DNA of 64,000 nucleotides. Origin: Candidatus Omnitrophota bacterium (lineage in GTDB: Bacteria > Omnitrophota > Gorgyraeia > Zapsychrales > Zapsychraceae). The position numbers and the translations under genes were made by a program. The stretch is taken from assembly GCA_020429915.1 (NCBI GenBank), contig JAGQKV010000006.1:5458-69457 (forward strand), read 5' to 3'. This document shows positions 2,188 to 33,920 of the stretch, piece by piece (the first letter of the stretch is position 1; each line of letters begins with the position of its first letter). Under the pieces are notes generated by a model. It ran no database searches and was not told where the DNA came from. It saw only the letters and a program-made list of their open reading frames with translations.

Positions 2188-2205
2188 AAGGCTGTCGCGT
2201 ATTCC

Positions 2206-5339: not shown

Positions 5340-5485
5340 CCCGGTTCCGTGTCCGGAAGTATCTGAATCTGTTGTCTTTTGCGGTCTTAGTACGGTATGA
5401 TAGTCAACAATGCGACCGTCTGCGGCGGGAATTGATCCGCGATCGCGTTGTCCAGAGCCGCCAACCGGTATCGGGGAATACGCCG

Positions 5486-9446: not shown

Positions 9447-9477
9447 CCGTGTCCCGGACGCGACTAAAATCGAATTC

Positions 9478-11226
9478 ATGAGAAGCAAAGACATCTCCAT
9501 CGCTTTTATTTGCAATGCCGTTTTATTGGGCCTGTTATGCGCCGATGCCCTCGGTCTCAATCTGTATCTCCGGGCTTTGTTCGTCAATTTGGCGATGTAT
9601 GTGGTCCCCGGAACGGGCTGGCTGGGCATCATGCGCCGGCATGTTTCGAGCGCGGTGTTCCTGTTGTTTTTTCAATTCGTCCTGTCCGTTGCCGCGTTGA
9701 TCGTCCTGCATTTGGGATTCCTCGCCGCGGGACACGTCCCGGACACGCACACGTTTTTAGTCGGTCTGCTGGTCCTGACAAATGCCGGTATTCTCGTCAG
9801 CCGGCCGGCAGCGGCGTTCGCCATGCTGCGTTTTGATTACTGGCGGATCGTGATTCTGGGCGTGACCCTGGTCTGCGTTTATACCTGCGTGTTTGCGGGC
9901 ATGCGCACTCTCCCCGGACAGTTGGACCTCGACGGCGAACATCAGGGAACGGCCTACGGGATCGTCCACGAGTTCCGGCCCTATCTGACCAGCGACATCA
10001 TCGCCTCGCCGTACTACTTCGCCCATCCGCCGTTAACCAATATTTTTAACGCCTACAGCACTTTGCTGTTGAACCGGACGGAAGATTACCGTTATTTTTA
10101 CGAAACCGCGAAACAGACCGAGCGCGTGCTCGGCTTGCGCCCCGGCGGACAGGAACCGGTGAGCCTTGGTCCGGAGCGGGGAAGTTTGATTTACTTCCAG
10201 GGCAGTACCTATGTCTTCCGGACGATGCGCGGCAATGACATGCTGGACCGGCCGATTTCCCGGCAAAGGGTGATGGAACATTTGGCGGCACCGGATCAAA
10301 AGAAGTTCTTCGACGATCCGCGGCCGTTTCCGGCGCGCGCTTCGAATATTTTTGCCAGCCTGTTCGTCCTGTGCGTGCTGTTTCAGTGGATCACCAAGCT
10401 GACGAATTCGCGGCTATTGGGTATCGTCGCCGGATTTGTCTATGTCTTCTCGCCGGGGATTTTCATCCGCTCCTGTTTCTCCGAGCACGTGGCCTTCACC
10501 AACGCCCTGTTGGTCGTATTGGCCTATCAGTTTTGTTTTCCCGAAGAATTCCGGGGAAAGGGACGTTGGGGCGGCCTGCTGGCCTATGTCCCGGGGCTGA
10601 TCGCCGGGCTGATCAATCAAAAAATAGTAATCATGGTCGCGCCGGTACTGGTGATGGAAGTCGTGACGTGTCTGCGGCAACGCGGGGCCGGGTCGTGGGC
10701 GGTCCGGCTTGTGAAGGCGGCGCCCATTCCCGCGGGTTTCGCGGCGGGCACGGTGCTGTTTTGGATCTACGGTCTGGCGATTGACCCGGCGGCGTTTTTT
10801 ATTTCGCATCTGCGGACACATTTTTTCGACCGTCTGCTGCATTTGAACACCATGTTCGGCGGGGATTATCCCGGCGCCGGTCTGCTCTGGTATCAGTTCA
10901 ATCACGAATTTCCGCCTTTTTTGCTGAGCGTCTTCGCTGTGTTGTATAGTTTAAAGAGCCAGCGCAACCGGACTGTCGTCTTTTTGACCGCCTGGGCCGT
11001 TTTCGGCGGAGTCCTGTTTTCCGTGGTCGACTGGAAACAAACCAATCATCTCACTCAGCTGACGATTCCGTTGTTGGCCGTGTTGATGATGTATATCGAA
11101 CAGCAGCCGCTCGCCTACAAACGGGTGTTAAAGGTTTTGGTGGGGTTGTGTCTGCTTTACGGTTTCTGGTTCGACATGCAGCTGCTGGCGGATTTTCATT
11201 TTTACAAACCGGTCAGCGGATGGTAA
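9478..11226 (+). CDS. Polytopic membrane protein, possibly a further GT-C-type glycosyltransferase
   Basis: More than 12 hydrophobic helices. A loop 'DGEHQGTAYGIVHEF' is reminiscent of GT-C first-loop motifs. No firm family assignment. Confidence 0.4.
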   Translation: MRSKDISIAFICNAVLLGLLCADALGLNLYLRALFVNLAMYVVPGTGWLGIMRRHVSSAVFLLFFQFVLSVAALIVLHLGFLAAGHVPDTHTFLVGLLVLTNAGILVSRPAAAFAMLRFDYWRIVILGVTLVCVYTCVFAGMRTLPGQLDLDGEHQGTAYGIVHEFRPYLTSDIIASPYYFAHPPLTNIFNAYSTLLLNRTEDYRYFYETAKQTERVLGLRPGGQEPVSLGPERGSLIYFQGSTYVFRTMRGNDMLDRPISRQRVMEHLAAPDQKKFFDDPRPFPARASNIFASLFVLCVLFQWITKLTNSRLLGIVAGFVYVFSPGIFIRSCFSEHVAFTNALLVVLAYQFCFPEEFRGKGRWGGLLAYVPGLIAGLINQKIVIMVAPVLVMEVVTCLRQRGAGSWAVRLVKAAPIPAGFAAGTVLFWIYGLAIDPAAFFISHLRTHFFDRLLHLNTMFGGDYPGAGLLWYQFNHEFPPFLLSVFAVLYSLKSQRNRTVVFLTAWAVFGGVLFSVVDWKQTNHLTQLTIPLLAVLMMYIEQQPLAYKRVLKVLVGLCLLYGFWFDMQLLADFHFYKPVSGW

Positions 11227-11241
11227 GAGAGAGGCGTCTGA

Positions 11242-13017
11242 ATGCAACGGGTCGTTGATTGGTTGAGGGACAATCGCACACTGTTGTGGCTGACATGCGC
11301 GCTGTGTCTGTTGCGGGCGGCGCCCTTATTCAGTGTGGAGGCGATTTGGCCGTCGCTCGAACGCTTCTATGCCGGAACCGTGGCCCGCGAGATGGCCGAC
11401 GGGCTGAAAATGCCACTCCTGGATTATCAATTCAGCAGCTATGAACCCGGATGGCTGCTGGCGGGTTTGCTTTGCCTGCCCTTTATGAAGCTCGTCGGTT
11501 TCACGTCGTTCGGCATGGCGTTGGCCGGGATATTATTGGACGCGATTCAATTTGTGATTTTTTATCGCATCCTGAACCGTTACATCAATCCACGCGTGGC
11601 ATTGTTTTACGGTTTGCAATATATCATCGCGCCCTACATTCTTCACGTCACCAACATCTTCGTCAACTTCAGTTATTTTGACCTGCCCTTTCTGACCGCC
11701 CTGTTTTTGGGAATGTATCTGAAGATTTTTCGTGACAACGGGGTTCACGCCGTTGTCGGGGGGACGGGCTTTTCGTTGTTTTGTCTGGGGCTGTTGGGTG
11801 GATTCTCGACGTGGCTTTGCCTGGCTTTTTTACTGATCGCCGTGCCGTGCCTGGTGCATTGGCGGGTTTATGTCCGCCGCGCGCGGCCGCGGGAAGTAGG
11901 CGCGTTTCTGGGCGGGTTCCTGATCGGCTTGAGCCCGTTGTTACTGCGCTGGTCCACCTTTGCCGGCGGAATCCAAAGCGGAATCCTTGAGCGGATCCTG
12001 GCGCAGGACGCCGGCGGGTTCATTTCAAGGTTGATTGGATTTCTTGCGGTGCGGCCGGCGTTTGCCTGGTCGGTGTTCTTTCAGTACATCGAGATCCTGG
12101 GTGTCCTGCTTTTTGTGATACTCATTATTCTGAGGAGAAAAGAGCTCGGCCGGGCCGTATCCGGATTATTCGGCGGCCGGGTCGGGGCTCCGGACGACAA
12201 CGGACTTCCGGTGATCTATATCGTCTATCTCCTGACGTTTATCACGGTATTCTGTTCGAGTGATTTTTCGAATGAACGGTATTTTCAGCCTGTGTATCCC
12301 TTTTTATTCGGCTGCAACGCCATGGCCGTTGACGGGCTGATGCGGATGCGGTCGCGCGTTTGGGGCCGGATCGGCACGGGGGTCCTGACTTTGCAATTGC
12401 TGCTGGCGGCGGCCGACTGCGCGACGGTCCCGCTGTATCGGACCGCGCCGAACCTGGCGCTCTTTCGCGACCGGGCCTATTCATACGCGTTGATCGGTTG
12501 CCTGTCCAGCTGGCGCTTCCGCCTGGACCCGCGGCGGGTGATGGCCATTTACGCGCGGTTGAAATCCGACGAAGACCGGCAGGCCTACATGCGGGGCTTC
12601 GGCTTCGAACTGGCAGTGGAAAGTGACGATACGCTTGCCGACGATTATTTCCAGTACCTGCGGGAGCATTTCCCCACAGACGACGGACGCCGCCGCGCTT
12701 TTCGCGTCGGACTCTTGCTGGGGCAGGGACAGCGGCAGTACGAAGGTACCGCGTTGTCCGAATTTTATCCGACGATACTGCAGTCCGTCACCCGGGAGGA
12801 GGTGCGACGATTCGTGAAGGAACAGGTTCGGCTGATCGGTTTTGAGGACGATGCCGACCGGCCGGCGTTATATGCGGGACTGGGTCAACAGTTTTTTGCG
12901 GTAGCCCCGGACATCGGGCTGCCCGCGGCGGAGGTAATTCCGTTTATTGAAGAGAAGTACCGGGGTGATTTCTTTCAAGGCCGGTTGCTGGCCGATCGTT
13001 ACCGGGATCAAATCTAG
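11242..13017 (+). CDS. ArnT/PMT-like membrane protein with a unique C-terminal soluble domain (paralog 1 of a tandem pair)
   Basis: 591 aa. 'WPSLERFYAGTVAREMADG' resembles the ArnT 'DEARYAEIAREM' loop. The N-terminal ~330 aa are membrane-embedded; the C-terminal ~250 aa are soluble. Clear paralog of the next gene. Confidence 0.5.
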   Translation: MQRVVDWLRDNRTLLWLTCALCLLRAAPLFSVEAIWPSLERFYAGTVAREMADGLKMPLLDYQFSSYEPGWLLAGLLCLPFMKLVGFTSFGMALAGILLDAIQFVIFYRILNRYINPRVALFYGLQYIIAPYILHVTNIFVNFSYFDLPFLTALFLGMYLKIFRDNGVHAVVGGTGFSLFCLGLLGGFSTWLCLAFLLIAVPCLVHWRVYVRRARPREVGAFLGGFLIGLSPLLLRWSTFAGGIQSGILERILAQDAGGFISRLIGFLAVRPAFAWSVFFQYIEILGVLLFVILIILRRKELGRAVSGLFGGRVGAPDDNGLPVIYIVYLLTFITVFCSSDFSNERYFQPVYPFLFGCNAMAVDGLMRMRSRVWGRIGTGVLTLQLLLAAADCATVPLYRTAPNLALFRDRAYSYALIGCLSSWRFRLDPRRVMAIYARLKSDEDRQAYMRGFGFELAVESDDTLADDYFQYLREHFPTDDGRRRAFRVGLLLGQGQRQYEGTALSEFYPTILQSVTREEVRRFVKEQVRLIGFEDDADRPALYAGLGQQFFAVAPDIGLPAAEVIPFIEEKYRGDFFQGRLLADRYRDQI

Positions 13018-13028
13018 GAGAGCGAAAG

Positions 13029-14804
13029 ATGGAAGGCATCGGCCGCTGGCTGAAGAATAACCGGAGTCTGGTGATCCTCACCGCCGCCCTTATCGCGGCG
13101 CGGGTGTCGTTGATTTTCTGCACCGAGCAGCTGTGGCCGTCGCTGGAACGGTTCTACACCGGGACCGTGGCCAAGGAGTTGGCCGACGGCATGGCCATGC
13201 CGCTGTGGGATTATCAGTTCAGCAGCTATGAGGCCGGGTGGCTGCTGGCGGCCCTGCTGTGCCTGCCGTTCTTTAAACTGTTCGGTTTTACGTCCTTTGC
13301 CATGGGCTTGTGCGGCATTATTCTCTACGTCATCCAGTTCGTTTTGCTCTACCGGCTGATCGAAAGGGGACTGAACCGCCGGGTCGCCGTTTTCTTCGGC
13401 CTGCAATACCTGTTCGCGCAGTATATCTTCAATCTCAACGCCCTGTTTGTCGGCTTTAACTACTTTAACATCGTTTTCCTGTACGCCCTGTTCCTCACTT
13501 TTTACCGGGCGGTCTTCCGCGACAATGCGATCCACGGTGTGGTCGGCGGGCCGTTGCTTTCGTTGTTTTTCTTAGGGCTGCTCGGCGGGTTTTCGACATG
13601 GGTGTGCTACGCCTTCGCGTTGATTGCGATCCCGTGCTTCATTCACTGGTGGATTTATTACCGTTCCCGGGATCTGCGGACGGTAGTGAGTTTTGTCGCC
13701 GGTTTCGTACTCGGCGGCAGCCCGTTGTTTTTTCGAATCGCCACGTTCGCCGGTGGGATCAAGACGGATATCCTGGCCAAGATCATCGCACAGGATTTGC
13801 CGGGCTTTATCGCGAAGTTTTGGCATTTTATCGGATTTGAACACAGTTACGCGCGTTCGGTGTTTTCCGATTACCTGGAGATCCTGGGAACGATTTTATT
13901 TGCGCTGATCATCTTTTTGAAGCGAAACGACCTGGGCCGTTTACTCGGTGCCGTTTTCGGATCGCGTGCCGTGGAAGAAGGCGAGAGCGGGACGTTTTTG
14001 CTGTTCTGTCTGTACCCCGCGGCCTTCCTGACCGTGTTCTGTCTGAGCGGTTTCGCGGACTACCGCTACTTTGCGCCGGTCTATCCGTTTGTCTTCGCTG
14101 TGAACGCCATTGCCGTCGATCTTCTGCTGAGTTACCGGAACCGATTTGTGAAGGGATTGGGGGCCGGATGTCTCGGGGTTTTATTGCTTTTTGGGGTGGC
14201 CGATAGTATAATTATACCGCTATATCCGGTTGCACCGAATCTTGCTTTATTCCGCGACGAGGCCTATTCCTACGAACTTTTGGGGTGTCTGGTCAGCTGG
14301 CGCTTTAAGGATGACCCCAGACGGGTTATGCGTGTGGTCAACCGGCTTTCCGACGATGAGAAACGCACGGATTTATTGCGCGGTTTCGGATTCGAGCTGG
14401 CCTTCGACGGGAACGAAGAACTCATCAAAGAGTACGATGTTTTTTTCGCCAACACCTACCGTCACCGGCCGGCGTTCCTGAAGGCTTATTCCAAGGGGTT
14501 TGTGATGGGGCTCGGCCACGAATATTTCGACGGCACGCCCCTCGGCGAATATTATCCGGAGGTCTTGCGGAATATCCCGCGCACCGGAGTCGAGCGGTAC
14601 TTGGTTAAGAAGCTGGACTTGATCGATATGCTCGATCCCCGGTACCGGCCGAAATGCTACATCGGTTTAGGTTTCCAGTTTTCCGCCCTTGAGGAGGAAT
14701 ACGGTCTGGACGCAGAATTTGTAACGCACCGGATCGGCACGGAGTATCACGACGACTTTATGCGTGGTGTCGCGCTTGGAAAAACATATACTTACCGGCT
14801 CTAA
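13029..14804 (+). CDS. ArnT/PMT-like membrane protein (paralog 2 of the tandem pair)
   Basis: 591 aa and collinear with the previous gene ('WPSLERFYTGTVAKELADG', 'DYQFSSYEAGWLLAALLCLPF', 'ALFRDEAYSYELLGCLVSWRF' conserved between the two copies). Confidence 0.5.
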   Translation: MEGIGRWLKNNRSLVILTAALIAARVSLIFCTEQLWPSLERFYTGTVAKELADGMAMPLWDYQFSSYEAGWLLAALLCLPFFKLFGFTSFAMGLCGIILYVIQFVLLYRLIERGLNRRVAVFFGLQYLFAQYIFNLNALFVGFNYFNIVFLYALFLTFYRAVFRDNAIHGVVGGPLLSLFFLGLLGGFSTWVCYAFALIAIPCFIHWWIYYRSRDLRTVVSFVAGFVLGGSPLFFRIATFAGGIKTDILAKIIAQDLPGFIAKFWHFIGFEHSYARSVFSDYLEILGTILFALIIFLKRNDLGRLLGAVFGSRAVEEGESGTFLLFCLYPAAFLTVFCLSGFADYRYFAPVYPFVFAVNAIAVDLLLSYRNRFVKGLGAGCLGVLLLFGVADSIIIPLYPVAPNLALFRDEAYSYELLGCLVSWRFKDDPRRVMRVVNRLSDDEKRTDLLRGFGFELAFDGNEELIKEYDVFFANTYRHRPAFLKAYSKGFVMGLGHEYFDGTPLGEYYPEVLRNIPRTGVERYLVKKLDLIDMLDPRYRPKCYIGLGFQFSALEEEYGLDAEFVTHRIGTEYHDDFMRGVALGKTYTYRL

Positions 14805-20120: not shown

Positions 20121-21389
20121 ATGACCAAGAAGTTACCCCGCGACAAGCGCGGCCCGCTCGTCGGGATTATATTCTTTCTCGTTCTTTTGTTTCTGATCGA
20201 AGCGGCGTCCTATTTGTGTCCGGCCAAACCCGACCGGCTGGAACGGATCCGCGCCGTATTGCGCCAGGACAGCCAGTTGTTCTGGCGCCAGCGCGCGCAT
20301 TTGAATACCGTCTTTGAGGGCGCGGCCGTACGGACCAACCGGTTGGGACTTCGCGACGAGCCGGTGAGCAAGGGCGGAAAGAAGCCGGTACTGCGCATCG
20401 TGACCCTCGGTGCCTCGCCGACATTCGGGTGGGGGGTAGAGCAAAACGATACCTACGCCCAGGTGCTTGAACGGATCCTGCGCGACACCTTAAATACCGA
20501 GCAGGTGGAGGTGATCAACGCCGGACAGATCGGTTTCAGTTCCTATCAGGGGCTGAAGTTTTTCCGGGAGGTGATCCTGCCGTTGAAGCCGAATATGATC
20601 ACCGTCTCGTATGTGATCAACGACGTGGACAAGTACCGGTTTTTCCGCAACCACTCGGCCCCTGACAGCCAGCTGAAGCCGCAGAGCGGATTGCTGGTGG
20701 CCGTGGAGAACGCGCTGGAACACAGCCGGTTTTTTCGTTTATATCGCAAGTTGGTCAACGGGACCAAATCGGCGTCGCAACAATTTTTCGGGGAGCGCGG
20801 CACCGGCGAATACCGGGAGTCACGGCGGGTGTCCCCGGAGGAATATCGCGCGAATATCACGGCACTGATCGATTTGGCACAACAGCACGGTATCGACGTG
20901 GTCCTGGTCAAGATGCCGGTCAATCTGCCGCAGCCGGTGAAGGTCCCGGAAAGCAATGTGATCCGGGCGAAGCAGACCGTGACCGAGGCGATGGTGTGGG
21001 CCGAGCGTGGTTACCGGGAGGAAGCCATCCGTTTACTGCAACAGGCGCTGGCGTACAATCCCAACACGCCCCGGGCGCACTATTATCTCGGGCAGCTCTA
21101 CCAGCGCACGGGCAAACGCAAGCAGGCCCGCAAACATTTTGAACGCACCGTTGTCCTGGAACTGTACGAATGCGCGCGGCTGGCCCTGGAGTACCACCGT
21201 GTGCTGGACGACATTGCCGCGCAGCGTGATGTTCGTCTGGTCGACGTGGTCACGGCCTTTGACGAATACCGCCGCTACGGCGGAGACTACCTGTTTCTGG
21301 ATCCGGAGCATGACACCATTCATCCCAACCGCACGGGTCACGCCGTGATCGGCTGGGCCATTTACGACGAAATCTTCGCGCGGCCGTGA
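20121..21389 (+). CDS. Membrane-anchored SGNH/GDSL-family hydrolase with an inserted TPR module
   Basis: N-terminal TM helix. Block I 'VTLGASPTFG', block III 'VINAGQIG', block V 'DTIHPNRTGH' (DxxHP). TPR-like 'AIRLLQQALAYNPNTPRAHYYLGQLYQRTGKRKQARKHFERT' sits between blocks III and V. Confidence 0.65.
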   Translation: MTKKLPRDKRGPLVGIIFFLVLLFLIEAASYLCPAKPDRLERIRAVLRQDSQLFWRQRAHLNTVFEGAAVRTNRLGLRDEPVSKGGKKPVLRIVTLGASPTFGWGVEQNDTYAQVLERILRDTLNTEQVEVINAGQIGFSSYQGLKFFREVILPLKPNMITVSYVINDVDKYRFFRNHSAPDSQLKPQSGLLVAVENALEHSRFFRLYRKLVNGTKSASQQFFGERGTGEYRESRRVSPEEYRANITALIDLAQQHGIDVVLVKMPVNLPQPVKVPESNVIRAKQTVTEAMVWAERGYREEAIRLLQQALAYNPNTPRAHYYLGQLYQRTGKRKQARKHFERTVVLELYECARLALEYHRVLDDIAAQRDVRLVDVVTAFDEYRRYGGDYLFLDPEHDTIHPNRTGHAVIGWAIYDEIFARP

Positions 21390-21402
21390 GCCTGCGCAAC
21401 CG

Positions 21403-21636
21403 GTGAAGACGATGACAAAGCCGAACGAACAACCCGATCCCCAACGGAAGCCGGAACGGCTCAAGAACAAGAAGATCAACACCAACAAAGAACTGTTGGT
21501 CGAGCTGTTCCAGATGATCAAGGAGCACAAGAAATGGTGGCTGTTGCCGTTCCTCTTAGTTCTGGCCTTTCTCAGTATTTTTGTGAACCTGGCCGGTAAC
21601 TCCTCCATTCTTCCCGCGATATACGCCCTGTTTTAG
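21403..21636 (+). CDS. DUF5989-like small membrane protein
   Basis: C-terminal 'ELLVELFQMIKEHKKWWLLPFLLVLAFLSIFVNLAGNSSILPAIYALF' matches the DUF5989 pattern (..KERKKWWLLPIIL..L.S..APFIYTLF). There is an unusual ~25-aa basic N-terminal extension; the start may be further downstream. Confidence 0.5.
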   Translation: MKTMTKPNEQPDPQRKPERLKNKKINTNKELLVELFQMIKEHKKWWLLPFLLVLAFLSIFVNLAGNSSILPAIYALF

Positions 21637-21686
21637 TATCAATCCGCGCACCGTCCGCCCGGACAGGCCATTCGGAATATTCCGTC

Positions 21687-22439
21687 ATGAACAAAAACCA
21701 TATGAAAATAGCGACCGTCATCCTCATTGTGGGTGCTGTGGCCTATAGTGTGTATGTTTTCCTGCAGGAGAGCGGCCGCGCGCGCATGGAGCAGCATTGG
21801 TCGGGGCAGCGTTTTGCCGCGCGGGATTATTATCCGCTGACGCCCGGGAACAAGTGGACATATCGTATCAGTGGTGATGACGAGCAATCCCGTTTGGACG
21901 TCGAAATCACCCAACGGGTGCAGTGGCAGGGACGCGATGCCGTCCGGGTGACTTTCAACGACGCGGCTTCAAAGATTCTCGGATTCGCCGAGAGCGGTCT
22001 GGTTAAATATCAGGAGATCGACGACGGAGAACAGGAAGTTTATGATCCTCCAGGCAGCATATTGCCCGATTTGACGTTCGGCGAATCCAGGGTGTTTCAT
22101 CCCAAATACGTTATGCAAACGGCGGACGCGGAGGTCGCCACCCGGGCTGCCGCCGAAATGAGTTTTTGGCTGGATACCATCGAAAGCGTCAAGGTGCCGG
22201 CCGGCACTTTCCGGGATGTCCTGAAAGTCGGCTATTACGACCGTTGGGAAGAAGAGGACGGGAGTTTCGATATCAGCCGCGGATATATCTGGTTTGCCAG
22301 GGGCGTCGGGATTGTTAAAATCAAAGGCTCGGCCACCGAAGTCGATCCCGAGAGCGGTCGGCGCGAGACGGAAAAGGAAATGCACGTGCTGGTATCGTAT
22401 CATATCGCCGGCGATGCACGGGAGGGCCGTAGTGAATAA
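21687..22439 (+). CDS. Hypothetical membrane-anchored protein
   Basis: N-terminal TM helix followed by a ~200-aa soluble domain. Codon usage is consistent with neighbouring genes. No motif recognised. Confidence 0.45.
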   Translation: MNKNHMKIATVILIVGAVAYSVYVFLQESGRARMEQHWSGQRFAARDYYPLTPGNKWTYRISGDDEQSRLDVEITQRVQWQGRDAVRVTFNDAASKILGFAESGLVKYQEIDDGEQEVYDPPGSILPDLTFGESRVFHPKYVMQTADAEVATRAAAEMSFWLDTIESVKVPAGTFRDVLKVGYYDRWEEEDGSFDISRGYIWFARGVGIVKIKGSATEVDPESGRRETEKEMHVLVSYHIAGDAREGRSE

Positions 22440-23757
22440 AACAGACGCCCAACGGAATTGGGGATTAGTCGTGGCCGGCATTTTGGCCGCATTTTTGTTG
22501 TTGGAAGCCGGGCTGCGGCTGGCCGGTTTTGTCTTCATGCAAACCCAGCAGGCCAGTAACCGCCGGGCCTTGAACACCGCCGGTGCGGTGCGGGTGTTGT
22601 GTCTGGGGGAATCGACCACCGCGTTGGGCGGCGCGCATGCGTATCCGCAGCTGTTGGAGCAGATTCTCAACCAAAATCCGGACGGCCGCGTGTTTCGGGT
22701 CATCAACAAGGGCGTGCCCGGGATCACCACCGACCACATTCTTGCCGGGCTCGATGACACCTTGAAGAAGTATGAACCGCATGTCGTGGTGGCGATGATG
22801 GGGATCAACGACGAGGACGGGGACGCGTCCTCCTGGGAAGAGCGCCTGCTGCATAAGTCCCGCGTGGTGCGGTTGCTGCAACTGATCGGCCGTCACGCCG
22901 CGCAGTCCCTGCCGTTTACTCACGCTGCACGCGAGAAGAAACTCTTTGACGAATTCATGAACAGCTGGGAGCAGGGGACTTCCGGCGAACCCGGCAAGGC
23001 CGAGTCGCTTTTCCGTCGCCAGCTGCGGGATCATCCCGATGATGTCGATGCTTATCTTGAACTGGCCAACTGGTTGCTTGTGCTCGACAAAGACGACGAG
23101 GCCATGTCCTTACTCGATGAAGCACAACGCAAATTTCCCGACAATGACGACATTCAGCTCGGCAAGGGGATCGCTTACCTGTTCCAGGACAGATGGGATG
23201 ACGCGGCGCGCGAACTTTACAACTACATCCAGCATGTAGGATATAACGATGATGCCTATATGGGCCTCGGCTGGGCCTTCATGCGGCAGGGCAAATACCT
23301 CCAGGCCGAAGAGATCCTGCGGCAAAATCTGGCGTTGAATCCCACGGACGCGGCCTTCGGGGCGTTGATCCTGTGTTACGAAAAGCAGGGTAAAACGGCC
23401 ATGGCAGAGAAGTACGGGCGGTTGGCGGAGGAGCGGCGCGCGCGCCGGCTGCTGCCGGTGACCCAGGACCGGTATCGGGAGCTGTACGCGGAGCTTCACC
23501 GGCGCGGGATCCCGCTGGTGGCTGTCCAGTATCCGCGGCGGGATGTCGGCCTGCTGCAGGCGGTTCTGGGCGAACGGGAGGGAATCGCGTTCGTGGACAA
23601 CAAGGCGAGCTTCGACGCGGCAGTCGCCCGGGACGGCTACGAGACGTATTTTATCAACAATTTCGCCGGGGATTTCGGTCACGGCACGGCGACCGGCAAC
23701 CGGCTGCTGGCCGAGAACGTGGCTAAGGCGGTGCTCGGGCTGGTCACGACGTTTTAA
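22414..23757 (+). CDS. Membrane-anchored SGNH hydrolase with inserted TPR module (paralog)
   Basis: Start set at the ATG at 22414 (the track ORF starts at 22294 and would overlap the previous gene by ~145 nt). One TM helix. 'VLCLGESTTALGG' (block I), 'VINKGVPGITTD' (block III), TPR repeats at aa ~240-370, 'FAGDFGHGTATGNRL' (block V). Confidence 0.65.
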   Translation: MHGRAVVNKTDAQRNWGLVVAGILAAFLLLEAGLRLAGFVFMQTQQASNRRALNTAGAVRVLCLGESTTALGGAHAYPQLLEQILNQNPDGRVFRVINKGVPGITTDHILAGLDDTLKKYEPHVVVAMMGINDEDGDASSWEERLLHKSRVVRLLQLIGRHAAQSLPFTHAAREKKLFDEFMNSWEQGTSGEPGKAESLFRRQLRDHPDDVDAYLELANWLLVLDKDDEAMSLLDEAQRKFPDNDDIQLGKGIAYLFQDRWDDAARELYNYIQHVGYNDDAYMGLGWAFMRQGKYLQAEEILRQNLALNPTDAAFGALILCYEKQGKTAMAEKYGRLAEERRARRLLPVTQDRYRELYAELHRRGIPLVAVQYPRRDVGLLQAVLGEREGIAFVDNKASFDAAVARDGYETYFINNFAGDFGHGTATGNRLLAENVAKAVLGLVTTF

Positions 23758-23811
23758 GTGAAAATATGCTAGAATATAAATACTTATATTATTACCCGGA
23801 CAGGATTCCCC

Positions 23812-25269
23812 ATGACCAAGAGAAAACTCGCGCTCCGCTATAAGCTTCTTATCAGCCTGATCAGCCTGCTTTTTAGTCTGACCGCCCTCGAACTGGGATT
23901 GGCAGCCGTCGGCCGGATTTATTACAGCCCGGACGAGGTCTACCGGGACGATGAATTGGAGGCGACGGGTAACGGTCCGGCCAAGACCCTGGTGGCCGTG
24001 GGCGATTCCTTTACCCACGGCGGTCTGGTCGCCGGGGACGCCACCTACACCCACTTCCTGCGTCAAATCCTGCGTGAGCAACAATACACCGATTACCGCG
24101 TCAAGAATCTTGGGATCTGCGAACTCAACAGCGGCGAGTTGCTCAAACGCATCCCGCGGATTATCGACCGGAACCAGCCCTACGCCATCCTGCTCCTGGT
24201 CGGTGCGACCAACCGTTTTAATCCCTGGGACTACGAGGCCTACGCCAACAAGGACTTTGTCAGCACGCTGAAAAAGAATTTCTTCAATCTGCGCGTGGTG
24301 AAGATGGCGCGTTTTATCGGTCTGGCCCTGACGGCGAACCGCGATATGGACCGCAACGGTTTGCTCAGTCTGATCGGTCCCGGCGACCGCAGCCGCAATA
24401 CACGGCATGACCTGCATCTGGAATATCTCGAGGAACGGCAGGAGGAGGCGGACATAAATTCCCCCGACGAGGTCGCCCGGGTGTGGGCTCTTTACAAGGA
24501 GGGCCGTAAAGCCGAAGCCCTGCACCGGGCCGAAAAACTCTTCACCGGACGCAGCCCGCGGGGACGCGAACTGCTGTTCGCCCTGACCTATTTTTACCTG
24601 AAGAATGACCGGCCCGATAAGGTTCAGGAAATGATCGCCTTGGCCACCAAAAACGACCGGGAGTCCGAGGAGATCCTCAATTTCATGACGTTCTACCGTT
24701 TTGAGCTGGCCCGCTGGCATCGGGAGCATTTGCAATATGACGAAGCCATCGACTGGTATCTTAAGGCCATCGCACTCGATCCGGATGCCGATTATTTTTT
24801 CTTTGAGCTTAACAAGATTTTCGATCTGCAGAGCCGGTATACCTCCAAGATGCTTTACGACAAACTCGCGGCGCTCGCCGACGAAAATCCGGACATCGCG
24901 CTCAGCCGGATGTATCAGAATCATCTCAAGCTCTACCGTGACAAACAAAAGTGGGAAGACGGAATCGGGGACTGGCTGCGGCATGATCTGGACGCCATCG
25001 CTGCCCTCTGTCGGCAGCGCGGGATCAAGCTGATTATCCAAAAGTATCCCGTGTCGTATCCGTTGGCGAATTCGGTGATCGAGGAGATTGCCCGTAAGTA
25101 CGACCTGCCCGTCGTCGATCATTTGACCCGCTTCCGTGACCTGGAACCGAAGAAAGATTATCTTTACGATGATGATCACTGCACGCCTGCCGGGCACCGG
25201 ATCATGGCGGAGAATATATACAAAACGCTGGTCAAGACGCAAACGGTCACTCATGAAAAGACAAATTAG
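23812..25269 (+). CDS. Membrane-anchored SGNH hydrolase with inserted TPR module (paralog)
   Basis: TM helix. 'LVAVGDSFTHGG' (GDSxx block I). TPR-like region ('ALYKEGRKAEALHRAEKLF', 'YDEAIDWYLKAIALDPDADYFF'). C-terminal 'DDDHCTPAGHRIMAENI' (block V DxxH). Confidence 0.65.
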   Translation: MTKRKLALRYKLLISLISLLFSLTALELGLAAVGRIYYSPDEVYRDDELEATGNGPAKTLVAVGDSFTHGGLVAGDATYTHFLRQILREQQYTDYRVKNLGICELNSGELLKRIPRIIDRNQPYAILLLVGATNRFNPWDYEAYANKDFVSTLKKNFFNLRVVKMARFIGLALTANRDMDRNGLLSLIGPGDRSRNTRHDLHLEYLEERQEEADINSPDEVARVWALYKEGRKAEALHRAEKLFTGRSPRGRELLFALTYFYLKNDRPDKVQEMIALATKNDRESEEILNFMTFYRFELARWHREHLQYDEAIDWYLKAIALDPDADYFFFELNKIFDLQSRYTSKMLYDKLAALADENPDIALSRMYQNHLKLYRDKQKWEDGIGDWLRHDLDAIAALCRQRGIKLIIQKYPVSYPLANSVIEEIARKYDLPVVDHLTRFRDLEPKKDYLYDDDHCTPAGHRIMAENIYKTLVKTQTVTHEKTN

Positions 25270-29393: not shown

Positions 29394-30692
29394 ATGAATA
29401 TACTGCTGATCAAACCGTACTGGCCTTATCCCTACGGCAAAGGGGAGCACACCTATAACCGTATATGGCCGCCGTTGTCGCTGGCGAATTGCGCTGCGAT
29501 TCTGGAACAGCGGGGGCATACGGTGGCCATCCTCGACGCGCACGCGCGGCGTATCCGCCCCCGATATATCGCGCGGCACATCGGCGGCTACGACAAGATA
29601 TTCCTGACATCATCTTCCTTGGACCGCTGGCAGTGTCCCAACGTCAATATGGTCCCCTTCTACGAAACCACCTCCGCGCTACGCGAGGCAGGCGCCGGGT
29701 TTTACGTGATGGGTTATCACGGGACTGTCGACGCGCAGAATGTCTTGGAACAGAGCGGGGCGCGCGCCGTCATCCGCGGCGGGCCCGAATTCATCGTAGC
29801 CGATATTTGCGCCGGCACCCCGCTGGCACAGATCAACGGCGTGAGCTATTTTGAAGGCGAAACCTTCCGCGCCAATCCCGATTACGGCAATTTCGAACTG
29901 ACCGAGCTGCCGGTACCGGCGTTTCATCTGCTCGATATCGACAAATATTTCTACGAGATTCTGGGCAAACGGTTCATGCTGTTCGAACTGGGCCGGGGCT
30001 GCAACTTCGGCTGCAAGTTTTGCAACCGCATCATGTACGCGCCCAAGCTGCGGGTGAAGACCAGCGAGCAGATGTGCGAAGAGGTGCGGACGGCCGTGGA
30101 GGAGCACGGCGTGAAGACGGCCTATTTCATGGACCTGGAATTTCTGCACTACAAAAATCATGTCAGCCGGCTGTGCGACTTCTTGATTGAAAAGAACTAT
30201 AACTTCAAATGGTGCTGCCAGACGCGGGCCGATTCGGTTGACCCGGACATTCTCGCGAAAATGAAGCAGGCCGGTTGTCAACTCATCCACGTCGGGGTGG
30301 AGAGCGGAACGAAAAAATACCTCGACCTCACCAACAAGTCCATTTCCCCTGAGCAGATTTTGGAGGGGGTCTCCATGTGTCGGGCCGCCGGGATCAAGAC
30401 GCTGGCCTTTTATATGTTCGGGTTAAAAGAGGAATCGGAAGACGACCGCCGGGAGACGTTTCGCTTTGCCAAAAAGCTGAACACCAACTTTGTCTCCTTC
30501 CACAAGGTCTATCCGTACCTGAAGAGCAATGTGTACATGCCGGATATCAATTTCAACAAATACATCGATAATTACATCCGCCGGGTGTATATCCAGTACT
30601 ACCTCCGTCCGGAATACATCTGGAGTTCGGATATGCTGACCCTGCTGCGCAGTTTCCGGGTGTTCATGGGGCGTTTACTGACTCTTATATGA
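29394..30692 (+). CDS. B12-binding-domain radical SAM enzyme
   Basis: 'GRGCNFGCKFC' CX3CX2C motif. N-terminal Rossmann-like domain ('ILLIKPYW..LSLANCAAILEQRGHTVAILD'). Confidence 0.7.
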   Translation: MNILLIKPYWPYPYGKGEHTYNRIWPPLSLANCAAILEQRGHTVAILDAHARRIRPRYIARHIGGYDKIFLTSSSLDRWQCPNVNMVPFYETTSALREAGAGFYVMGYHGTVDAQNVLEQSGARAVIRGGPEFIVADICAGTPLAQINGVSYFEGETFRANPDYGNFELTELPVPAFHLLDIDKYFYEILGKRFMLFELGRGCNFGCKFCNRIMYAPKLRVKTSEQMCEEVRTAVEEHGVKTAYFMDLEFLHYKNHVSRLCDFLIEKNYNFKWCCQTRADSVDPDILAKMKQAGCQLIHVGVESGTKKYLDLTNKSISPEQILEGVSMCRAAGIKTLAFYMFGLKEESEDDRRETFRFAKKLNTNFVSFHKVYPYLKSNVYMPDINFNKYIDNYIRRVYIQYYLRPEYIWSSDMLTLLRSFRVFMGRLLTLI

Positions 30693-32722
30693 TGAATCCC
30701 ATCCGTATATCCATCATCCTTCCCGTTTACAATGAAGAAGCGAATATTCAGCGCACTGTTGAAGAGGCGGCGCAGTGGTTGAAGCAGTGCGCCGGTATCT
30801 CCGCTTACGAAATCGTGGCGGTGAACGACGGCAGCCGCGACAACAGCGGTAAAATCCTGGAGCGTTTGAAAACCGAAGTCGAGAATCTCGTGGTGGTGGA
30901 CTATCCCGGGAACAAGGGATACGGAGGCGCGCTGGTGAGCGGGATTCGCGTGGCCCGTTACGACTGGATCCTGCTGATGGACTCCGACGGACAGTTCAAG
31001 ATGGACGCGCTGGCCGGTCTGCTCGAGTATACAGAGGAACACGACATCGTGGCCGGATACCGCCGGCAGCGGCAAGATAATTTCCTGCGCATCTGGCTCG
31101 GCGAGCTGTATACATTCCTGGCCGGCGCCTTCCTGAAGGTTCGGCTGCGCGACATCAACTGCGGATTCAAATTGTTCCGCAAATCTTTTCTGGATGTCGA
31201 CGGGATCAACACACATGCCGGCGCATTTTATACCCATGTCTTTATGAACGCGCACGCCAAGAACGCGCGGATCAAGGAAGTCCCGGTTGCGCATCACCCG
31301 CGCCCGGCCGGACGGTCGACAGGAGCCAGCCCCAAGGTGGTGATGATGGCCGTCAGTGATTTTTGGGACCTGCTGTTCGGTCGGGGACGGTCATCCGCCG
31401 CGCCGACACGCACGTCATGGGCCGGCAAAGCGGGCCTGCTGATCCTCGGTTGTTTTCTGACGCTGGTCGTGCTCGAGGTAGGCATGCGGACGTCCGGCGC
31501 CCTGATCACCACGGCGCAGTCTTTGCAGAACCGTTTGGCTGTCCGTGACGACAGCCGCTACCGCATTCTGTGCGTGGGGGAATCGACCACCTTCTTCGGG
31601 ACCTACAATTACGCGTATCCGCATATGCTCGAGGAGATCCTTAACCAGCACCCGGCCGGAAGCGAGTACCGGGTCTTTAATGAAGGACAGATCGGCACCG
31701 ATACGGATGAAATTCTCGAAGACCTGTCGGACCATCTGCGACGGTACCGACCGCACATGGTGATCGCGATGATGGGTGTCAACGACGCCTTCGGAGAGGA
31801 TTTGGGAACGGTGCCGGCGGGAGGGTTCTCGCATTTGCGTGTGGTCCGTTTGATGCAGCTCATTCGTCGTCACTGGCAGGAAAAGTTCGGGTCCTATCGC
31901 GGTGACCGCCATGTCGAACGGGGATACGAGTTTTTGAGTGACGGTGACATCGAGGAGGCGTGGGCGGAGGTGGAACGGGCCCGGCGGGCCGGTGCGCCGC
32001 CGGCGGAAATTGAAGCTCTGACCGGACATATCCATTGGCTGGCTGCCGGTGATTTCGACCGGTCGGCGGCGGCCTATGACAAGGCCCTCAGTCTGGACCC
32101 CGGCCGCGAGTGGCTTTATGAAGATTATTTTCAGGTCCTGTACTACGGCAATCGTTATGAAGAGGCTGCCGGTGTGATGCAACGGATGCTGGCCCGCTTT
32201 CCCAAATCAGAGGATGCCTACCGGAAGCTGGGGAAGGTGTATCTTCAACTGAAACAGTACGACAAACTCGAGGCCCTCCTGCAAAAGGCGGACGAGCAGG
32301 TTCCCGATGATCCGGGGATGATCAGGATCCGGGCGGCCTATCATCTGGCCAAGGGGGAAACCGACCGGGCCGAACGTCTTTTTGAACGCTATGCCGAGTA
32401 TGAACGTCAACACACCAATCCGCGGACGGCGGATAATTACCGTATCCTGCGGGATACGGTCCTGGCCTCGGGGGCTGAATTGGTAGCCGTACAGTATCCG
32501 TTGCGGGACGTGGATTCGCTCAAGGCCATGCTGAACAATGACCGGCGGGTCACTTTCGTCTCCAACGAGGATAATTTCAAGTCAGCGGTCCTGGAACACG
32601 GCTACGGCCAGCTCTTCACCGACCAATTTGCCGGCGACTTCGGTCATTTGAGCGACCGCGGGAACCGTCTGCTGGCCGGTGCGGTGGCCGAAGCGATTTT
32701 AGGGCATCTGCAAAGGCGGTAA
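30689..32722 (+). CDS. Fusion protein: GT2 (DPM1/GtrB-like polyprenyl-phosphate glycosyltransferase) plus SGNH hydrolase with TPR insertion
   Basis: N-terminal 'ISIILPVYNEE...VAVNDGSRDNS...LMDSDGQ' is a GT2 DxD-type domain. A TM helix follows, then 'RILCVGESTTFFG' (block I), 'VFNEGQIGTDTD' (block III), TPR repeats and 'FAGDFGHLSDRGNRL' (block V). Confidence 0.7.
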   Translation: MMNPIRISIILPVYNEEANIQRTVEEAAQWLKQCAGISAYEIVAVNDGSRDNSGKILERLKTEVENLVVVDYPGNKGYGGALVSGIRVARYDWILLMDSDGQFKMDALAGLLEYTEEHDIVAGYRRQRQDNFLRIWLGELYTFLAGAFLKVRLRDINCGFKLFRKSFLDVDGINTHAGAFYTHVFMNAHAKNARIKEVPVAHHPRPAGRSTGASPKVVMMAVSDFWDLLFGRGRSSAAPTRTSWAGKAGLLILGCFLTLVVLEVGMRTSGALITTAQSLQNRLAVRDDSRYRILCVGESTTFFGTYNYAYPHMLEEILNQHPAGSEYRVFNEGQIGTDTDEILEDLSDHLRRYRPHMVIAMMGVNDAFGEDLGTVPAGGFSHLRVVRLMQLIRRHWQEKFGSYRGDRHVERGYEFLSDGDIEEAWAEVERARRAGAPPAEIEALTGHIHWLAAGDFDRSAAAYDKALSLDPGREWLYEDYFQVLYYGNRYEEAAGVMQRMLARFPKSEDAYRKLGKVYLQLKQYDKLEALLQKADEQVPDDPGMIRIRAAYHLAKGETDRAERLFERYAEYERQHTNPRTADNYRILRDTVLASGAELVAVQYPLRDVDSLKAMLNNDRRVTFVSNEDNFKSAVLEHGYGQLFTDQFAGDFGHLSDRGNRLLAGAVAEAILGHLQRR

Positions 32723-32726
32723 GACT

Positions 32727-33920
32727 ATGGAATTCGGATTCATGAAACGGGTGGACTACTGGGCGGGAAGGCCGCTGTGCTGGCTTTTGACGCTGTGGCG
32801 CCGGATCATACCCGGCCGGCCGGCTCGAGCAATGCCTCCCGAGCGGATCCTGATCATCAAGCCCTCGGAGTTGGGGGCGATTATCCTCGCTTTTCCGCTG
32901 ATCAACCGGTTGCAGCAACAGTACCCGCAGGCCCGGATCAGTTTTCTGACCTTTGCCGCCAATCGCTCGTTATTCGAAGTCAGCCGGATGGTCCCGGCCG
33001 ATCAGATAATCACCCTGCGGGAGGGGTCTTTCGGCGTTTTTCTGACCGATGTGATATCGGCTCTGGCCCGGATCCGGCGGGAGCGGTATGATGTGGTGAT
33101 CGATCTGGAGTTCTTTTCACGCTTCACCGCGATCGTGAGCTTTTTCAGCGGTGCCCCCAAGCGGGCCGGTTTTCACCGCTACAGCATCGAGGGGGTTTAT
33201 CGCGGGGATCTGTTCACTCACAGGGTGCCCTACAATCCGCACCGTCACGTCCAGCAGATGTACCTCCACATGATTTCCAGTTTGGACAAATCCTTTAAGG
33301 ATACCCCCGAGAATGATGCCCCGGATCCCGACTACGGAACGGATTGGCGCTACCAACCCTCCGACGACACACGTGACCGGATACGGACAAAATTGGCGGC
33401 TGAAGGGGTGGATCCGGCGGCCCGCCTCTATTTGTTGGCCCCGGGGGAGGGACGAATCCCGTTGCGGGAATGGCCGTTAGAGAACTTTGTGAGCCTGGCT
33501 GACCGGATTCTGGAGGACCCGCAGGCCAGGGTGGTGGTCGTCGGGCTGCAAGATCCTGCCGGACGTGCCGGGCATTTGCTCAATACGGTCCGCTCCCGCG
33601 ACCGGGTCACCGATTGGGTAGGCCGGACCGACCTCCCTGAGCTGCTGACGCTTTTCTCCCTGGCCAAGGGGGTGGTGGCCGCCGATTCGGGGCTGGCGCA
33701 TCTGGCCGCGCTGACCCCGGTTAAAAATTACGTCCTGTTCGGCCCCGAGCATCCGCGCATCTTCCAACCGTTGGGCGAGAACACCGTGGTATTCTATCTC
33801 GGCCTCCCATGTTCGCCGTGTCTGTCTGTCTTTAATCATCGCAACTCCGCCTGCCGGGACAATCTCTGTCTGAAGCATATCTCCGTGGACGAAGTTTACC
33901 GGTCGCTTGTGGATAACTGA
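32727..33920 (+). CDS. Glycosyltransferase family 9 (heptosyltransferase, WaaC/WaaF-like)
   Basis: 'ILIIKPSELGAII' N-terminal motif and 'VVAADSGLAHLAAL' (GT9 'DSGPMHLAAA' motif). Confidence 0.7.
   Translation: MEFGFMKRVDYWAGRPLCWLLTLWRRIIPGRPARAMPPERILIIKPSELGAIILAFPLINRLQQQYPQARISFLTFAANRSLFEVSRMVPADQIITLREGSFGVFLTDVISALARIRRERYDVVIDLEFFSRFTAIVSFFSGAPKRAGFHRYSIEGVYRGDLFTHRVPYNPHRHVQQMYLHMISSLDKSFKDTPENDAPDPDYGTDWRYQPSDDTRDRIRTKLAAEGVDPAARLYLLAPGEGRIPLREWPLENFVSLADRILEDPQARVVVVGLQDPAGRAGHLLNTVRSRDRVTDWVGRTDLPELLTLFSLAKGVVAADSGLAHLAALTPVKNYVLFGPEHPRIFQPLGENTVVFYLGLPCSPCLSVFNHRNSACRDNLCLKHISVDEVYRSLVDN

Follow-up and report, generated by a model that had tools for sequence, protein, structure and literature searches.

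The stretch of DNA analysed here, which we call the window, comprises 64,000 nucleotides of a Candidatus Omnitrophota contig and carries a gene in which a glycosyltransferase of family GT2 and an SGNH-TPR enzyme are joined in one reading frame. This raises the question whether the fusion tells us that one enzyme acts on the product of the other, as the initial annotation had proposed, or only that the two enzymes share a pathway.

Layout of the fused gene

The gene is a single uninterrupted ORF that starts with ATG, codes for 677 aa followed by a stop codon and has no internal stops in the ORF listing. In the protein, the GT2 domain (aa 1-235) is followed by a short linker, one TM helix and an SGNH domain that contains a TPR insertion. 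The parts of the gene are given below with the evidence for each in brackets.

30689..32722, + strand: whole fused ORF; the start codon ATG and the stop codon TGA of the B12-radical-SAM gene before it overlap as ATGA
30689..31393, + strand: GT2 domain, polyprenyl-phosphate glycosyltransferase class (Pfam, NCBIfam, PDB phmmer, AF2 with Foldseek, alignment A3)
31394..31408, + strand: fusion scar SAAPT, aa 236-240 (junction comparison, pLDDT, dN/dS)
31394-31429, + strand: disordered linker of 12 residues, aa 236-247, which encloses the fusion scar
31430..31486, + strand: TM helix, aa 248-266 (hydropathy, alignment A1, AF2 helix)
31550..31837, + strand: N-terminal part of the SGNH domain, aa ~288-383 (blocks I GESTT, II and III GVND)
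31838..32467, + strand: TPR array, all-helical, aa ~384-593 (Pfam TPR families, PDB TPR matches, AF2 secondary structure)
32468..32719, + strand: C-terminal part of the SGNH domain, aa ~594-677 (strands beta4 and beta5, block V DFGH)

The initial annotation had parsed the protein into a GT2 domain of about 235 aa with three motifs, a TM helix and a full SGNH-TPR module, and this parse was confirmed: the motifs LPVYNEE (aa 11-17), VNDGSRDNS (aa 45-53) and DSDGQ (aa 98-102) are present, aa 8-168 match Pfam PF00535 with an E value of 5e-30, there is one TM helix and the SGNH domain is complete and catalytically intact. The AF2 models used below were built separately for the two halves from alignments A1 and A3; the full-length alignment A2 was dropped as model input because MAFFT had placed GT2-only homologues over the SGNH region.

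The GT2 half

The closest PDB sequences to the GT2 half in a phmmer search were ArnC (E 1e-17 over aa 4-214) and then GtrB and DPMS, and when its AF2 model (pLDDT 86) was used in Foldseek the top 25 matches were all ArnC, GtrB or DPMS. In NCBIfam there were partial matches to ArnC, PgfS, PpgS, and AglJ, and the ArnC model aligned to aa 6-229 with a score far under its equivalog cut-off. The GT2 half has the GT-A fold and the DxD motif for metal and nucleotide-sugar, with no variation at D98 and D100 and almost none at Q102 in alignment A3, and it is nearer to polyprenyl-phosphate GT2 enzymes than to other GT2 enzymes, the juxtamembrane region after the GT-A domain included. The most likely explanation is that the GT2 half is an enzyme of the ArnC/GtrB/DPMS class that moves a sugar from a nucleotide-sugar onto a predicted polyprenyl phosphate acceptor.

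GtrB and ArnC have two TM helices and the Pyrococcus DPMS has four. The GT2 half has no C-terminal TM hairpin or bundle of its own, and its split orthologues stop at aa 235-237 without a hydrophobic segment. We take it to resemble the TM-less subclass of human DPM1, mycobacterial Ppm1 D2, and PpgS.

Gene neighbourhood

The fused gene lies in a cluster with the following features.

29394..30692, + strand: B12-binding radical SAM gene (432 aa), upstream of and translationally coupled to the fused gene, syntenic in all related loci
32727..33920, + strand: GT9 (heptosyltransferase-like) gene, downstream, syntenic in all related loci that are long enough
268..14804, + strand: array of GT-C-like polytopic membrane proteins with YfhO and PMT_2 matches
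20121..25269, + strand: three stand-alone TM-SGNH-TPR paralogs (20121-21389, ~22432-23757, 23812-25269), none of which adjoins a GT2

The GT9 gene begins 4 nt past the stop codon of the fused ORF. Within the GT-C array, 5372-7417 codes for a protein with PMT_2 and TPR matches, and genes for a DegT aminotransferase and an SDR lie among the GT-C genes. GT-C proteins are the usual consumers of polyprenyl-P-monosaccharides; those of the array are presumed to be periplasmic users of the polyprenyl-P-sugar.

A Gtr-like three-component system consists of a polyprenyl-P GT2, a GtrA-type flippase and a GT-C transferase, and of these the GT2 and several GT-C proteins are present. The cluster resembles the GtrB/GtrA/GtrC, CsbB/GtcA/YfhO, and ArnC/ArnEF/ArnT systems in that the GT2 half is nearest to ArnC, GtrB, and DPMS in sequence and in predicted structure and in that many of its GT-C proteins match YfhO or PMT_2. 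Three points set it apart: its GT2 lacks the TM hairpin that GtrB and ArnC carry at the C-terminus, the window yielded no flippase of the GtrA or ArnE/F type, and none of those systems has an equivalent of the SGNH-TPR partner. GtrA (PF04138) gave no match in a scan of the window in which small ORFs were only partly covered, and the cluster may reach upstream of position 1. The closest non-orthologous relatives of the GT2 half are GT2-GtrA fusions, an architecture that is absent here. In the literature we found no account of an SGNH-TPR/GT-C cluster or of this cluster in Omnitrophota.

The SGNH-TPR half

The second half has the three-layer alpha/beta/alpha flavodoxin-like fold and the conserved blocks of an SGNH enzyme, namely, block I GESTT with the nucleophile S299, block II with G333, block III GVND with N365, and block V DFGH with D650 and H653. 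S299, G333, and H653 are invariant in 15 family sequences, and at least 90% of these also have N365 and D650. The TPR array of about 210 residues, of which aa ~440-590 are covered by Pfam TPR families, splits the SGNH fold between blocks III and V. In sequence, the SGNH half had no significant match to any solved SGNH protein in the PDB; its best structural matches are carbohydrate esterases, that is, hydrolases.

The TM-SGNH-TPR family has at least 1,274 representative clusters, among which we found no characterised members. The fusion had been called unusual and this is borne out, because among the best 150 of the 1,274 strong family representatives an N-terminal GT2 is limited to the window clade. 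On the other hand, a general link of the family to GT2 enzymes does not follow: the three window paralogs, which are 17-33% identical to the C-terminal half of the fused protein, are not beside a GT2 and neither are most of the distant family members. One distant SGNH relative, in locus L014, has a short GT2 nearby.

The TM segment contains the sequence ILGC, which was considered as a lipoprotein lipobox. This was rejected, since the Cys is not conserved: the fused orthologue P0002 has Ala in its place, and the paralogs and more distant relatives lack it. The hydrophobic stretch also runs on beyond it.

As in CE3 esterases, Ape1, PatB, the SGNH domains of OatA/OafB, and AlgJ/AlgX, the window protein combines the SGNH fold with the Ser-Gly-Asn-His blocks, and like AlgJ and the AT3-linked SGNH domains (PMC4148444; PMC9833829), it is membrane-tethered with its SGNH domain predicted to lie outside the cytoplasmic membrane. 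It differs from these extracytoplasmic enzymes in carrying the TPR array inside the SGNH fold and in being fused to a GT2 and not to an acyl-translocating domain, and it has no MBOAT/AT3 partner in the cluster. Neither MBOAT (PF03062) nor AT3 (PF01757) was found among the scanned window ORFs of at least 200 aa or in the gene tables of the syntenic loci, and a search for cryptic MBOAT, AT3, and GtrA in the unannotated membrane proteins gave nothing even at E values up to 5. Since these scans gave no MBOAT/AT3 acyl conduit and the best structural matches are carbohydrate esterases, an esterase is favoured over a transferase, and the SGNH domain is most likely an O-acyl esterase. Alternatively, SGNH-TPR could transfer O-acyl groups in the periplasm in the manner of PatB, OatA or AlgJ/AlgX, its acyl source being an MBOAT/AT3 protein from another locus or phospholipids. 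In the Planctomycetales contig L007 an MBOAT is directly followed by a family member of 24% identity, so that some SGNH-TPR relatives probably are acyltransferases, and the N-terminal anchoring is like that of AlgJ (PMC4148444). Against this, the 64-kb window and every syntenic locus are without MBOAT/AT3 and the top structural matches are hydrolases; we therefore hold the transferase reading to be possible for the window protein but on the unlikely side.

Fused and split forms

A search for fused and split forms in other genomes, which the initial annotation had suggested, gave both. The window group and L001 are fused, whereas four lineages with the same synteny (L002, L003/L004, L016, and L017) are split into a TM-less GT2 of 235-237 aa and a TM-SGNH-TPR protein of 441-442 aa. 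In 6/6 related lineages examined the two are adjacent, overlapping or abutting, and hence the claim that GT2 and SGNH-TPR are linked was upheld. The split junctions are of three kinds: an ATGA overlap, TAA-CCG-ATG in frame, and TAG-GT-ATG. No further fused or split orthologues were found in scans of GTDB species representatives and JGI metagenomes, which gave only relatives with 24-31% identity, and the census therefore rests on six lineages. The split relatives manage without a covalent link between GT2 and SGNH.

Neighbour-joining trees of the two halves are congruent and place the fused forms as a monophyletic group inside the split forms. These results show that the fusion had one origin, recent and narrow, in one Omnitrophota sub-clade. 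The scar SAAPT stands where the split orthologues have a stop codon, a spacer and a Met-Lys start, and pLDDT is below 50 at aa 236-242. The stop and start codons between two abutting genes would thus have been replaced once by sense codons. Between the window and L001, dN/dS is 0.06 for GT2, 0.10 for the N-terminal SGNH part, 0.10 for TPR, 0.13 for the C-terminal SGNH part, and 0.38 for the linker and TM helix (aa 231-270), values that are approximate since dS is about 1.3 and near saturation. Both halves are under purifying selection.

It could be argued that the fusion is a neutral accident in which the stop codon was lost between in-frame abutting genes, the read-through being tolerated because the topology, a cytoplasmic N-terminus and then a TM helix, was already compatible; the fusion would then tell us no more than operon membership does. 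The L003/L004 junction would need only one substitution, being in frame with merely TAA-CCG ahead of ATG; the fusion arose just once, and neither the JGI and GTDB scans nor the best 150 representatives of the family gave any others; and the linker is disordered and faster-evolving. However, the fusion has been kept without re-splitting over a dS of about 1.3 under strong purifying selection on both halves, and the GT2 has no anchor of its own, so that tethering plausibly matters, as has been argued for Ppm1/Ppm2 (PMC3460810). We consider a purely neutral origin unlikely. Nevertheless, the weight that had been put on the fusion as a Rosetta-stone link has to be reduced, because it is one recent loss of a stop and start in a sub-clade with four sister lineages split.

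Topology and proposed role

The only hydrophobic segment in the protein by the Kyte-Doolittle scale is aa 248-266, which is in origin the signal-anchor of the SGNH-TPR protein and is closed by the family-invariant motif LLExGxR (E263, R267). From aa 220 to aa 261 there is no in-frame ATG, GTG or TTG from which a separate SGNH-TPR product could be made. The stand-alone orthologues begin with the K/R-rich sequence MK(A/K)RTSLR(H/Q)(R/K) followed by the TM helix, and by the positive-inside rule their N-terminus is cytoplasmic. The GT2 must also be cytoplasmic since it uses a nucleotide-sugar, and a BamD homologue encoded in the window points to a diderm cell envelope, which includes a periplasm. 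Judged from one hydropathy peak, the charge bias and the cytosolic donor, we infer that GT2 is cytoplasmic and SGNH-TPR periplasmic.

The explanation that best accounts for the whole, and which we regard as reasonably probable, is that the protein is a bitopic two-enzyme protein of the inner membrane in a Gtr/Arn-like pathway that feeds the GT-C array. The cytoplasmic GT2 would load a sugar from a nucleotide-sugar onto polyprenyl phosphate while being tethered by the former signal-anchor helix of its partner, and the same helix would set the SGNH domain and the TPR array in the periplasm. The polyprenyl-P-sugar would be flipped, and the GT-C enzymes of the cluster would build a glycoconjugate from it. 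The SGNH domain would most likely strip O-acyl groups, or less likely transfer them, and its probable substrate would be this glycoconjugate. The fusion would then report a shared pathway, obligatory 1:1 co-expression and, probably, recruitment of GT2 to the membrane by the TM helix of its partner.

The initial annotation had instead taken the SGNH domain to act on the lipid-linked sugar or on its immediate product. In such a model the flipped monosaccharide would be (de-)acylated in the periplasm before its use by GT-C enzymes. There are lipid-linked sugars that are de-acylated before transfer, for example Und-P-Ara4FN by ArnD. Also consistent with this reading are the universal and often translationally coupled adjacency of GT2 and SGNH-TPR in the orthologous cluster, where fusion is tolerated, the invariant Glu and Arg at the periplasmic end of the TM anchor, where the head group of a lipid-phosphate would lie, and the arrangement in L014. 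However, with a single TM helix between them the two domains are on opposite faces of the membrane, and a product cannot be handed over directly unless a flippase moves it across; the fusion happened once and recently, and four sister lineages are split; the three paralogs and most of the distant relatives have no neighbouring GT2; and in the Ppm1/Lnt case the polyprenyl-P-sugar is not what the acyltransferase acts upon (PMC3460810). This reading is improbable, and the fusion is a minor variant specific to its lineage that does not count as evidence for direct feeding of one enzyme by the other. Still more doubtful is its extension to the whole TM-SGNH-TPR family as periplasmic editors of lipid-linked sugars, with the Glu/Arg pair binding the lipid-phosphate and the GT2 fusion being a producer-editor Rosetta stone across the membrane.

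The preferred reading, a shared pathway with anchoring of GT2, has a parallel in Mt-Ppm1. The catalytic domain of Lnt faces outward. Mt-Ppm1 (Rv2051c) of Mycobacterium tuberculosis consists of Lnt (D1) and a TM-less polyprenol-monophosphomannose synthase (D2), whereas M. smegmatis and C. glutamicum encode the two side by side as ppm2 and ppm1, whose products interact and act in a common pathway (PMC3460810). The window fusion and Mt-Ppm1 have in common a polyprenyl-phosphate GT2 without TM helices that some lineages fuse to its partner and others encode next to it in an operon. The partner, in each case anchored in the membrane and acting by acyl-transfer chemistry, is taken to hold GT2 at the membrane, and both enzymes belong to one envelope-modification pathway. 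By analogy, such a fusion can mean membrane anchoring and a shared downstream target and not the passing of a product (PMC3460810). The two differ in that GT2 is C-terminal in Ppm1 and N-terminal here, and in that the partner there is a polytopic Lnt of the CN-hydrolase fold and here a single-pass SGNH-TPR protein unrelated to it in sequence; moreover, Ppm1 is from another phylum and its function has been experimentally demonstrated, whereas the window fusion is read from sequence.

The fusion reveals no new mechanism and its uses are modest. It fixes the likely orientation of the large SGNH-TPR family, because a nucleotide-sugar GT2 ahead of a single TM helix requires N-in, C-out, and it ties one member of the family to a polyprenyl-phosphate-sugar/GT-C pathway, which is a starting point for biochemistry. 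It would also be a second independent case of the Ppm1 pattern, in which a TM-less polyprenyl-P-sugar synthase is fused to or lies beside a membrane enzyme of acyl-transfer chemistry. In addition, it points to a conserved and unexplained Omnitrophota gene set of a GT-C array, B12-radical-SAM, radical-SAM-SPASM, and SGNH-TPR.

Integrity of the reading frame

A frameshift or sequencing error had been named in the initial annotation as what would refute the fusion. In one assembly of the same 90% cluster the gene is indeed broken up, into P0059 (250 aa) and P0058 (412 aa). An assembly or sequencing artefact (frameshift or missed stop) is nevertheless extremely improbable: 64 indexed collection blocks (45 contigs in one search), from dozens of assemblies and many samples, contain the 677-aa protein without any change, and the variant P0056 of about 95% identity on a 2.0 Mb contig and the 79% identical P0002/L001 are also fused, with differing linker sequences. 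The error is in the P0059/P0058 copy, the only broken one, where the homopolymer run GATTTTTGGG (T5G3) has lost 1 bp; the frame of P0059 is the +1 frame of the window and P0058 begins past the TM helix.

The fused gene and its operon

The initial annotation had claimed a fused gene at 30689-32722, and the same coordinates were recovered as a + strand ORF of 677 aa without interruption. Since the ATG of the fused gene overlaps the TGA that closes the B12-binding radical-SAM gene upstream, and the GT9 gene starts 4 nt past its stop, it lies in a tightly packed co-directional operon. Window 268-33920 is a single co-directional cluster with the contents listed here, and no description of it was found in literature searches.

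Contents of the co-directional cluster
268-33920, + strand: at least seven GT-C-like polytopic proteins, a DegT aminotransferase, an SDR and two radical-SAM-SPASM genes
268-33920, + strand, continued: four B12-binding radical-SAM genes, four TM-SGNH-TPR paralogs, a class-V aminotransferase and a GT9

At 5372-7417 (+) a PMT_2 GT-C domain is joined to a long C-terminal TPR array, the architecture of TMTC protein O-mannosyltransferases in eukaryotes; taken with the SPASM radical-SAM genes, this hints that the target of the cluster might be a protein or peptide. Two tandem polytopic paralogs of 591 aa each (11242-13017 and 13029-14804, +) have near-identical TM motifs, such as LLCLPFxKLxGFTSF, and a weak PMT_2 match is present in the second but not in the first. 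Two long antisense ORFs are probably non-coding; one of 786 aa (23110-25470, -) lies opposite an SGNH-TPR paralog and a B12-radical-SAM gene and one of 744 aa (55532-57766, -) opposite LeuRS, all well-supported + strand genes.

Authenticity and origin of the fusion

An assembly artefact as the source of the fusion was ruled out, because the identical fused protein (MCA9393594.1) is present in 64 collection blocks drawn from more than one source and on 45 contigs in one search, a variant of about 95% identity (MCB9719865.1) is on a 2.0 Mb contig, and P0002 of locus L001, 79% identical, is a fusion as well, fully syntenic although its linker sequence differs. The sole broken copy, P0059 (250 aa) plus P0058 (412 aa) from one ENA assembly, has lost 1 bp from the GATTTTTGGG run at window 31355-31366, which shifts it to the +1 frame of the window and deprives the SGNH fragment of its TM helix; it is this copy, and not the fusion, that is the artefact. 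Such a homopolymer error could pass for a native split form.

A search of other genomes for fused versus split genes gave both, fused in the window group and L001 and split in four related lineages (L002, L003/L004, L016 and L017). The next-closest homologues (55-66% identity) are SGNH-TPR proteins of 441-442 aa, and in each of the split loci a separate GT2 gene of 235-237 aa abuts the SGNH-TPR gene within the common order class-V aminotransferase, B12-radical-SAM, GT2, SGNH-TPR and GT9. The synteny of L002 extends further to two PilZ genes, GH94 and the ABC transporter.

Junctions between the GT2 and SGNH-TPR genes in the split loci
L002, L016: ATGA overlap
L003/L004: TAA-CCG-ATG, in frame
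L017: TAG-GT-ATG

Gene boundaries drawn from L002 have to be read with caution because its assembly is error-prone with frameshifts (the 908-aa GH94 of window 35083-37809 is three consecutive ORFs at L002 8279-10944), but its GT2/SGNH-TPR junction has a proper stop and start, the same as in L016. Where the split forms have a stop, a spacer and Met-Lys, the window has SAAPT (aa 236-240), followed by the conserved RTS that trails the start in split forms. The fusion is a well-documented case of stop-codon loss joining genes. Neighbour-joining trees of the two halves are congruent: the three fused sequences group in a single clade within the split ones, L016 is basal, and this nesting indicates that the fusion was a single, derived event. 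Between the window and the other fused lineage (dS about 1.3), dN/dS is lowest in GT2 (0.06), followed by the SGNH N-part and TPR (0.10 each) and the SGNH C-part (0.13), and reaches 0.38 in the linker plus TM; judged from these ratios, both enzymes have been under purifying selection ever since they were joined. No start codon lies in frame from aa 220 to aa 261, and therefore SGNH-TPR can be made only as the fusion.

The two halves and their predicted topology

That the N-terminal half is a DPM1/GtrB-type GT2 is supported by sequence matches, predicted fold and conserved residues. PF00535 matches at aa 8-168 (E 5e-30), and the partial, sub-cut-off NCBIfam matches (PgfS, ArnC at aa 6-229, PpgS, AglJ and a haloarchaeal dolichyl-phosphate hexose transferase) are all to polyprenyl-phosphate GT2 enzymes. 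The best PDB sequences are ArnC (E 1e-17, aa 4-214), GtrB sll0501 and Pyrococcus DPMS, and when aa 1-275 were modelled with AF2 (pLDDT 86), the top 25 Foldseek matches were all ArnC, GtrB and DPMS. D98, D100 and Q102 of DSDGQ are invariant or nearly so in 31 homologues. Beyond the fused/split clade, the nearest GT2 relatives (35-38% identity) are GT2-GtrA fusions.

The Pfam parse was clear for PF00535 but not for the other half, where Lipase_GDSL_2 matched below threshold and at profile positions 1-99 only; nor did this half match the sequence of any solved SGNH protein. The reason is that a TPR array interrupts the SGNH domain. In the family alignment block I is GESTT (S299), block II G333 and block III GVND (N365), after which come about 210 helical TPR residues, two further strands and block V, DFGH (D650/H653). 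With all four blocks present around the array, the module is full, as had been claimed, and the SGNH domain is complete and, from its motifs, apparently catalytically competent.

Hydropathy gave one TM segment in the entire protein (aa 248-266), the helix annotated between the two halves, and one N-terminal TM segment in each of the three stand-alone SGNH-TPR paralogs in the window. Split orthologues start with MK(A/K)RTSLR(H/Q)(R/K) and then a TM helix, by sequence a classic N-in signal-anchor. The fused protein would also be N-in because GT2 depends on cytosolic nucleotide-sugar, and with a single TM helix in this orientation the SGNH-TPR module is predicted to be periplasmic. A BamD homologue encoded in the window indicates a diderm envelope. 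At the predicted periplasmic end of the anchor is LLExGxR (window 31475-31492, aa 263-268), invariant or nearly so in orthologues, paralogs and 30%-identical relatives, whose E263 and R267 form a conserved charged pair at the membrane interface.

Proposed role

The fusion tells us that the GT2 and SGNH-TPR proteins belong together, and the TM-less GT2 is probably held at the membrane by the SGNH-TPR anchor. We propose a bitopic two-enzyme protein of a Gtr/Arn-like pathway, in which the cytoplasmic GT2 would make a polyprenyl-P-sugar that would be flipped and then consumed by the GT-C array of the cluster, and the periplasmic SGNH-TPR paralogs would then edit O-acyl groups of the product. MBOAT, AT3 and GtrA were not found in the window or the syntenic loci, and hydrolysis by SGNH-TPR is favoured over transfer because no acyl conduit is encoded.

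While the ORF, the domains and the fusion stood as first described, the deduction that the lipid-linked sugar or its immediate product is the SGNH substrate did not. Because a flippase step must intervene, the fusion neither implies nor excludes such a substrate, and we consider it unlikely. There is a precedent in Mycobacterium tuberculosis Rv2051c, in which an Lnt domain is fused to PPM synthase, while M. smegmatis and C. glutamicum have the two as separate neighbours, ppm2 and ppm1 (PMC3460810). As here, a polyprenyl-P GT2 is fused in some lineages and has an adjacent-gene partner in others. Ppm2-Ppm1 interaction comes from earlier work cited in PMC3460810, whose own experiments show that Lnt and PPM synthase act in one pathway; the Lnt domain (D1) of Rv2051c supported lipoprotein glycosylation but failed to restore N-acylation in the host used. 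By analogy with Ppm1, the fusion would make sense even if SGNH acted on something other than the lipid-linked sugar.

Rarity of the fusion and the wider family

An exhaustive HMMER search of 50% representatives with the SGNH-TPR half gave 14,664 matches at E ≤ 1e-3, of which 1,274 reached E ≤ 1e-30. Of the best 150 representatives only P0002, of the fused clade, aligned from about residue 237, which bears out the description of the fusion as unusual; the others aligned from their own N-terminus, and their spread in length is mostly variable TPR repeat number. GTDB representatives and JGI metagenomes yielded no additional orthologues. The fusion is a new, lineage-restricted domain architecture built from known enzyme classes, and its main value is as a topology and pathway clue for the large uncharacterised SGNH-TPR family, and also for the unusual GT-C/radical-SAM cluster surrounding it.

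The GT2 link is confined to the fused/split orthologous cluster, since distant relatives sit in differing gene contexts. In another Omnitrophota locus type (L005, L012 and L013, about 30% identity) SGNH-TPR has radical-SAM genes on one side and a PMT_2 GT-C on the other; in L014 a 240-aa GT2, a B12-radical-SAM gene and a large membrane protein are nearby; and in L010 it is in a housekeeping region. In the Planctomycetales locus L007 (1911-3377; 24% identity) an MBOAT gene is immediately upstream of TM-SGNH-TPR, and some distant relatives are probably MBOAT-dependent acyltransferases. The L007 pair has the classic two-component O-acyltransferase layout, which is not present in the window.

L005 (1062-11743), L012 and L013 carry a B12-radical-SAM gene, two radical-SAM-SPASM genes, a RidA-like gene, SGNH-TPR and PMT_2 GT-C, as well as a beta-propeller protein of about 1200 aa and a 351-aa protein without assigned function. 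This gene set has the same ingredients as the window cluster, which suggests a conserved uncharacterised module. Downstream of the window cluster, two small tandem PilZ-domain genes (34173-34851, +; 8 nt overlap) separate the glycan cluster from a unit made up of GH94, an ABC sugar transporter and GH2; c-di-GMP control is conceivable, and the synteny of the pair is kept in L001, L002, L008 and L009.
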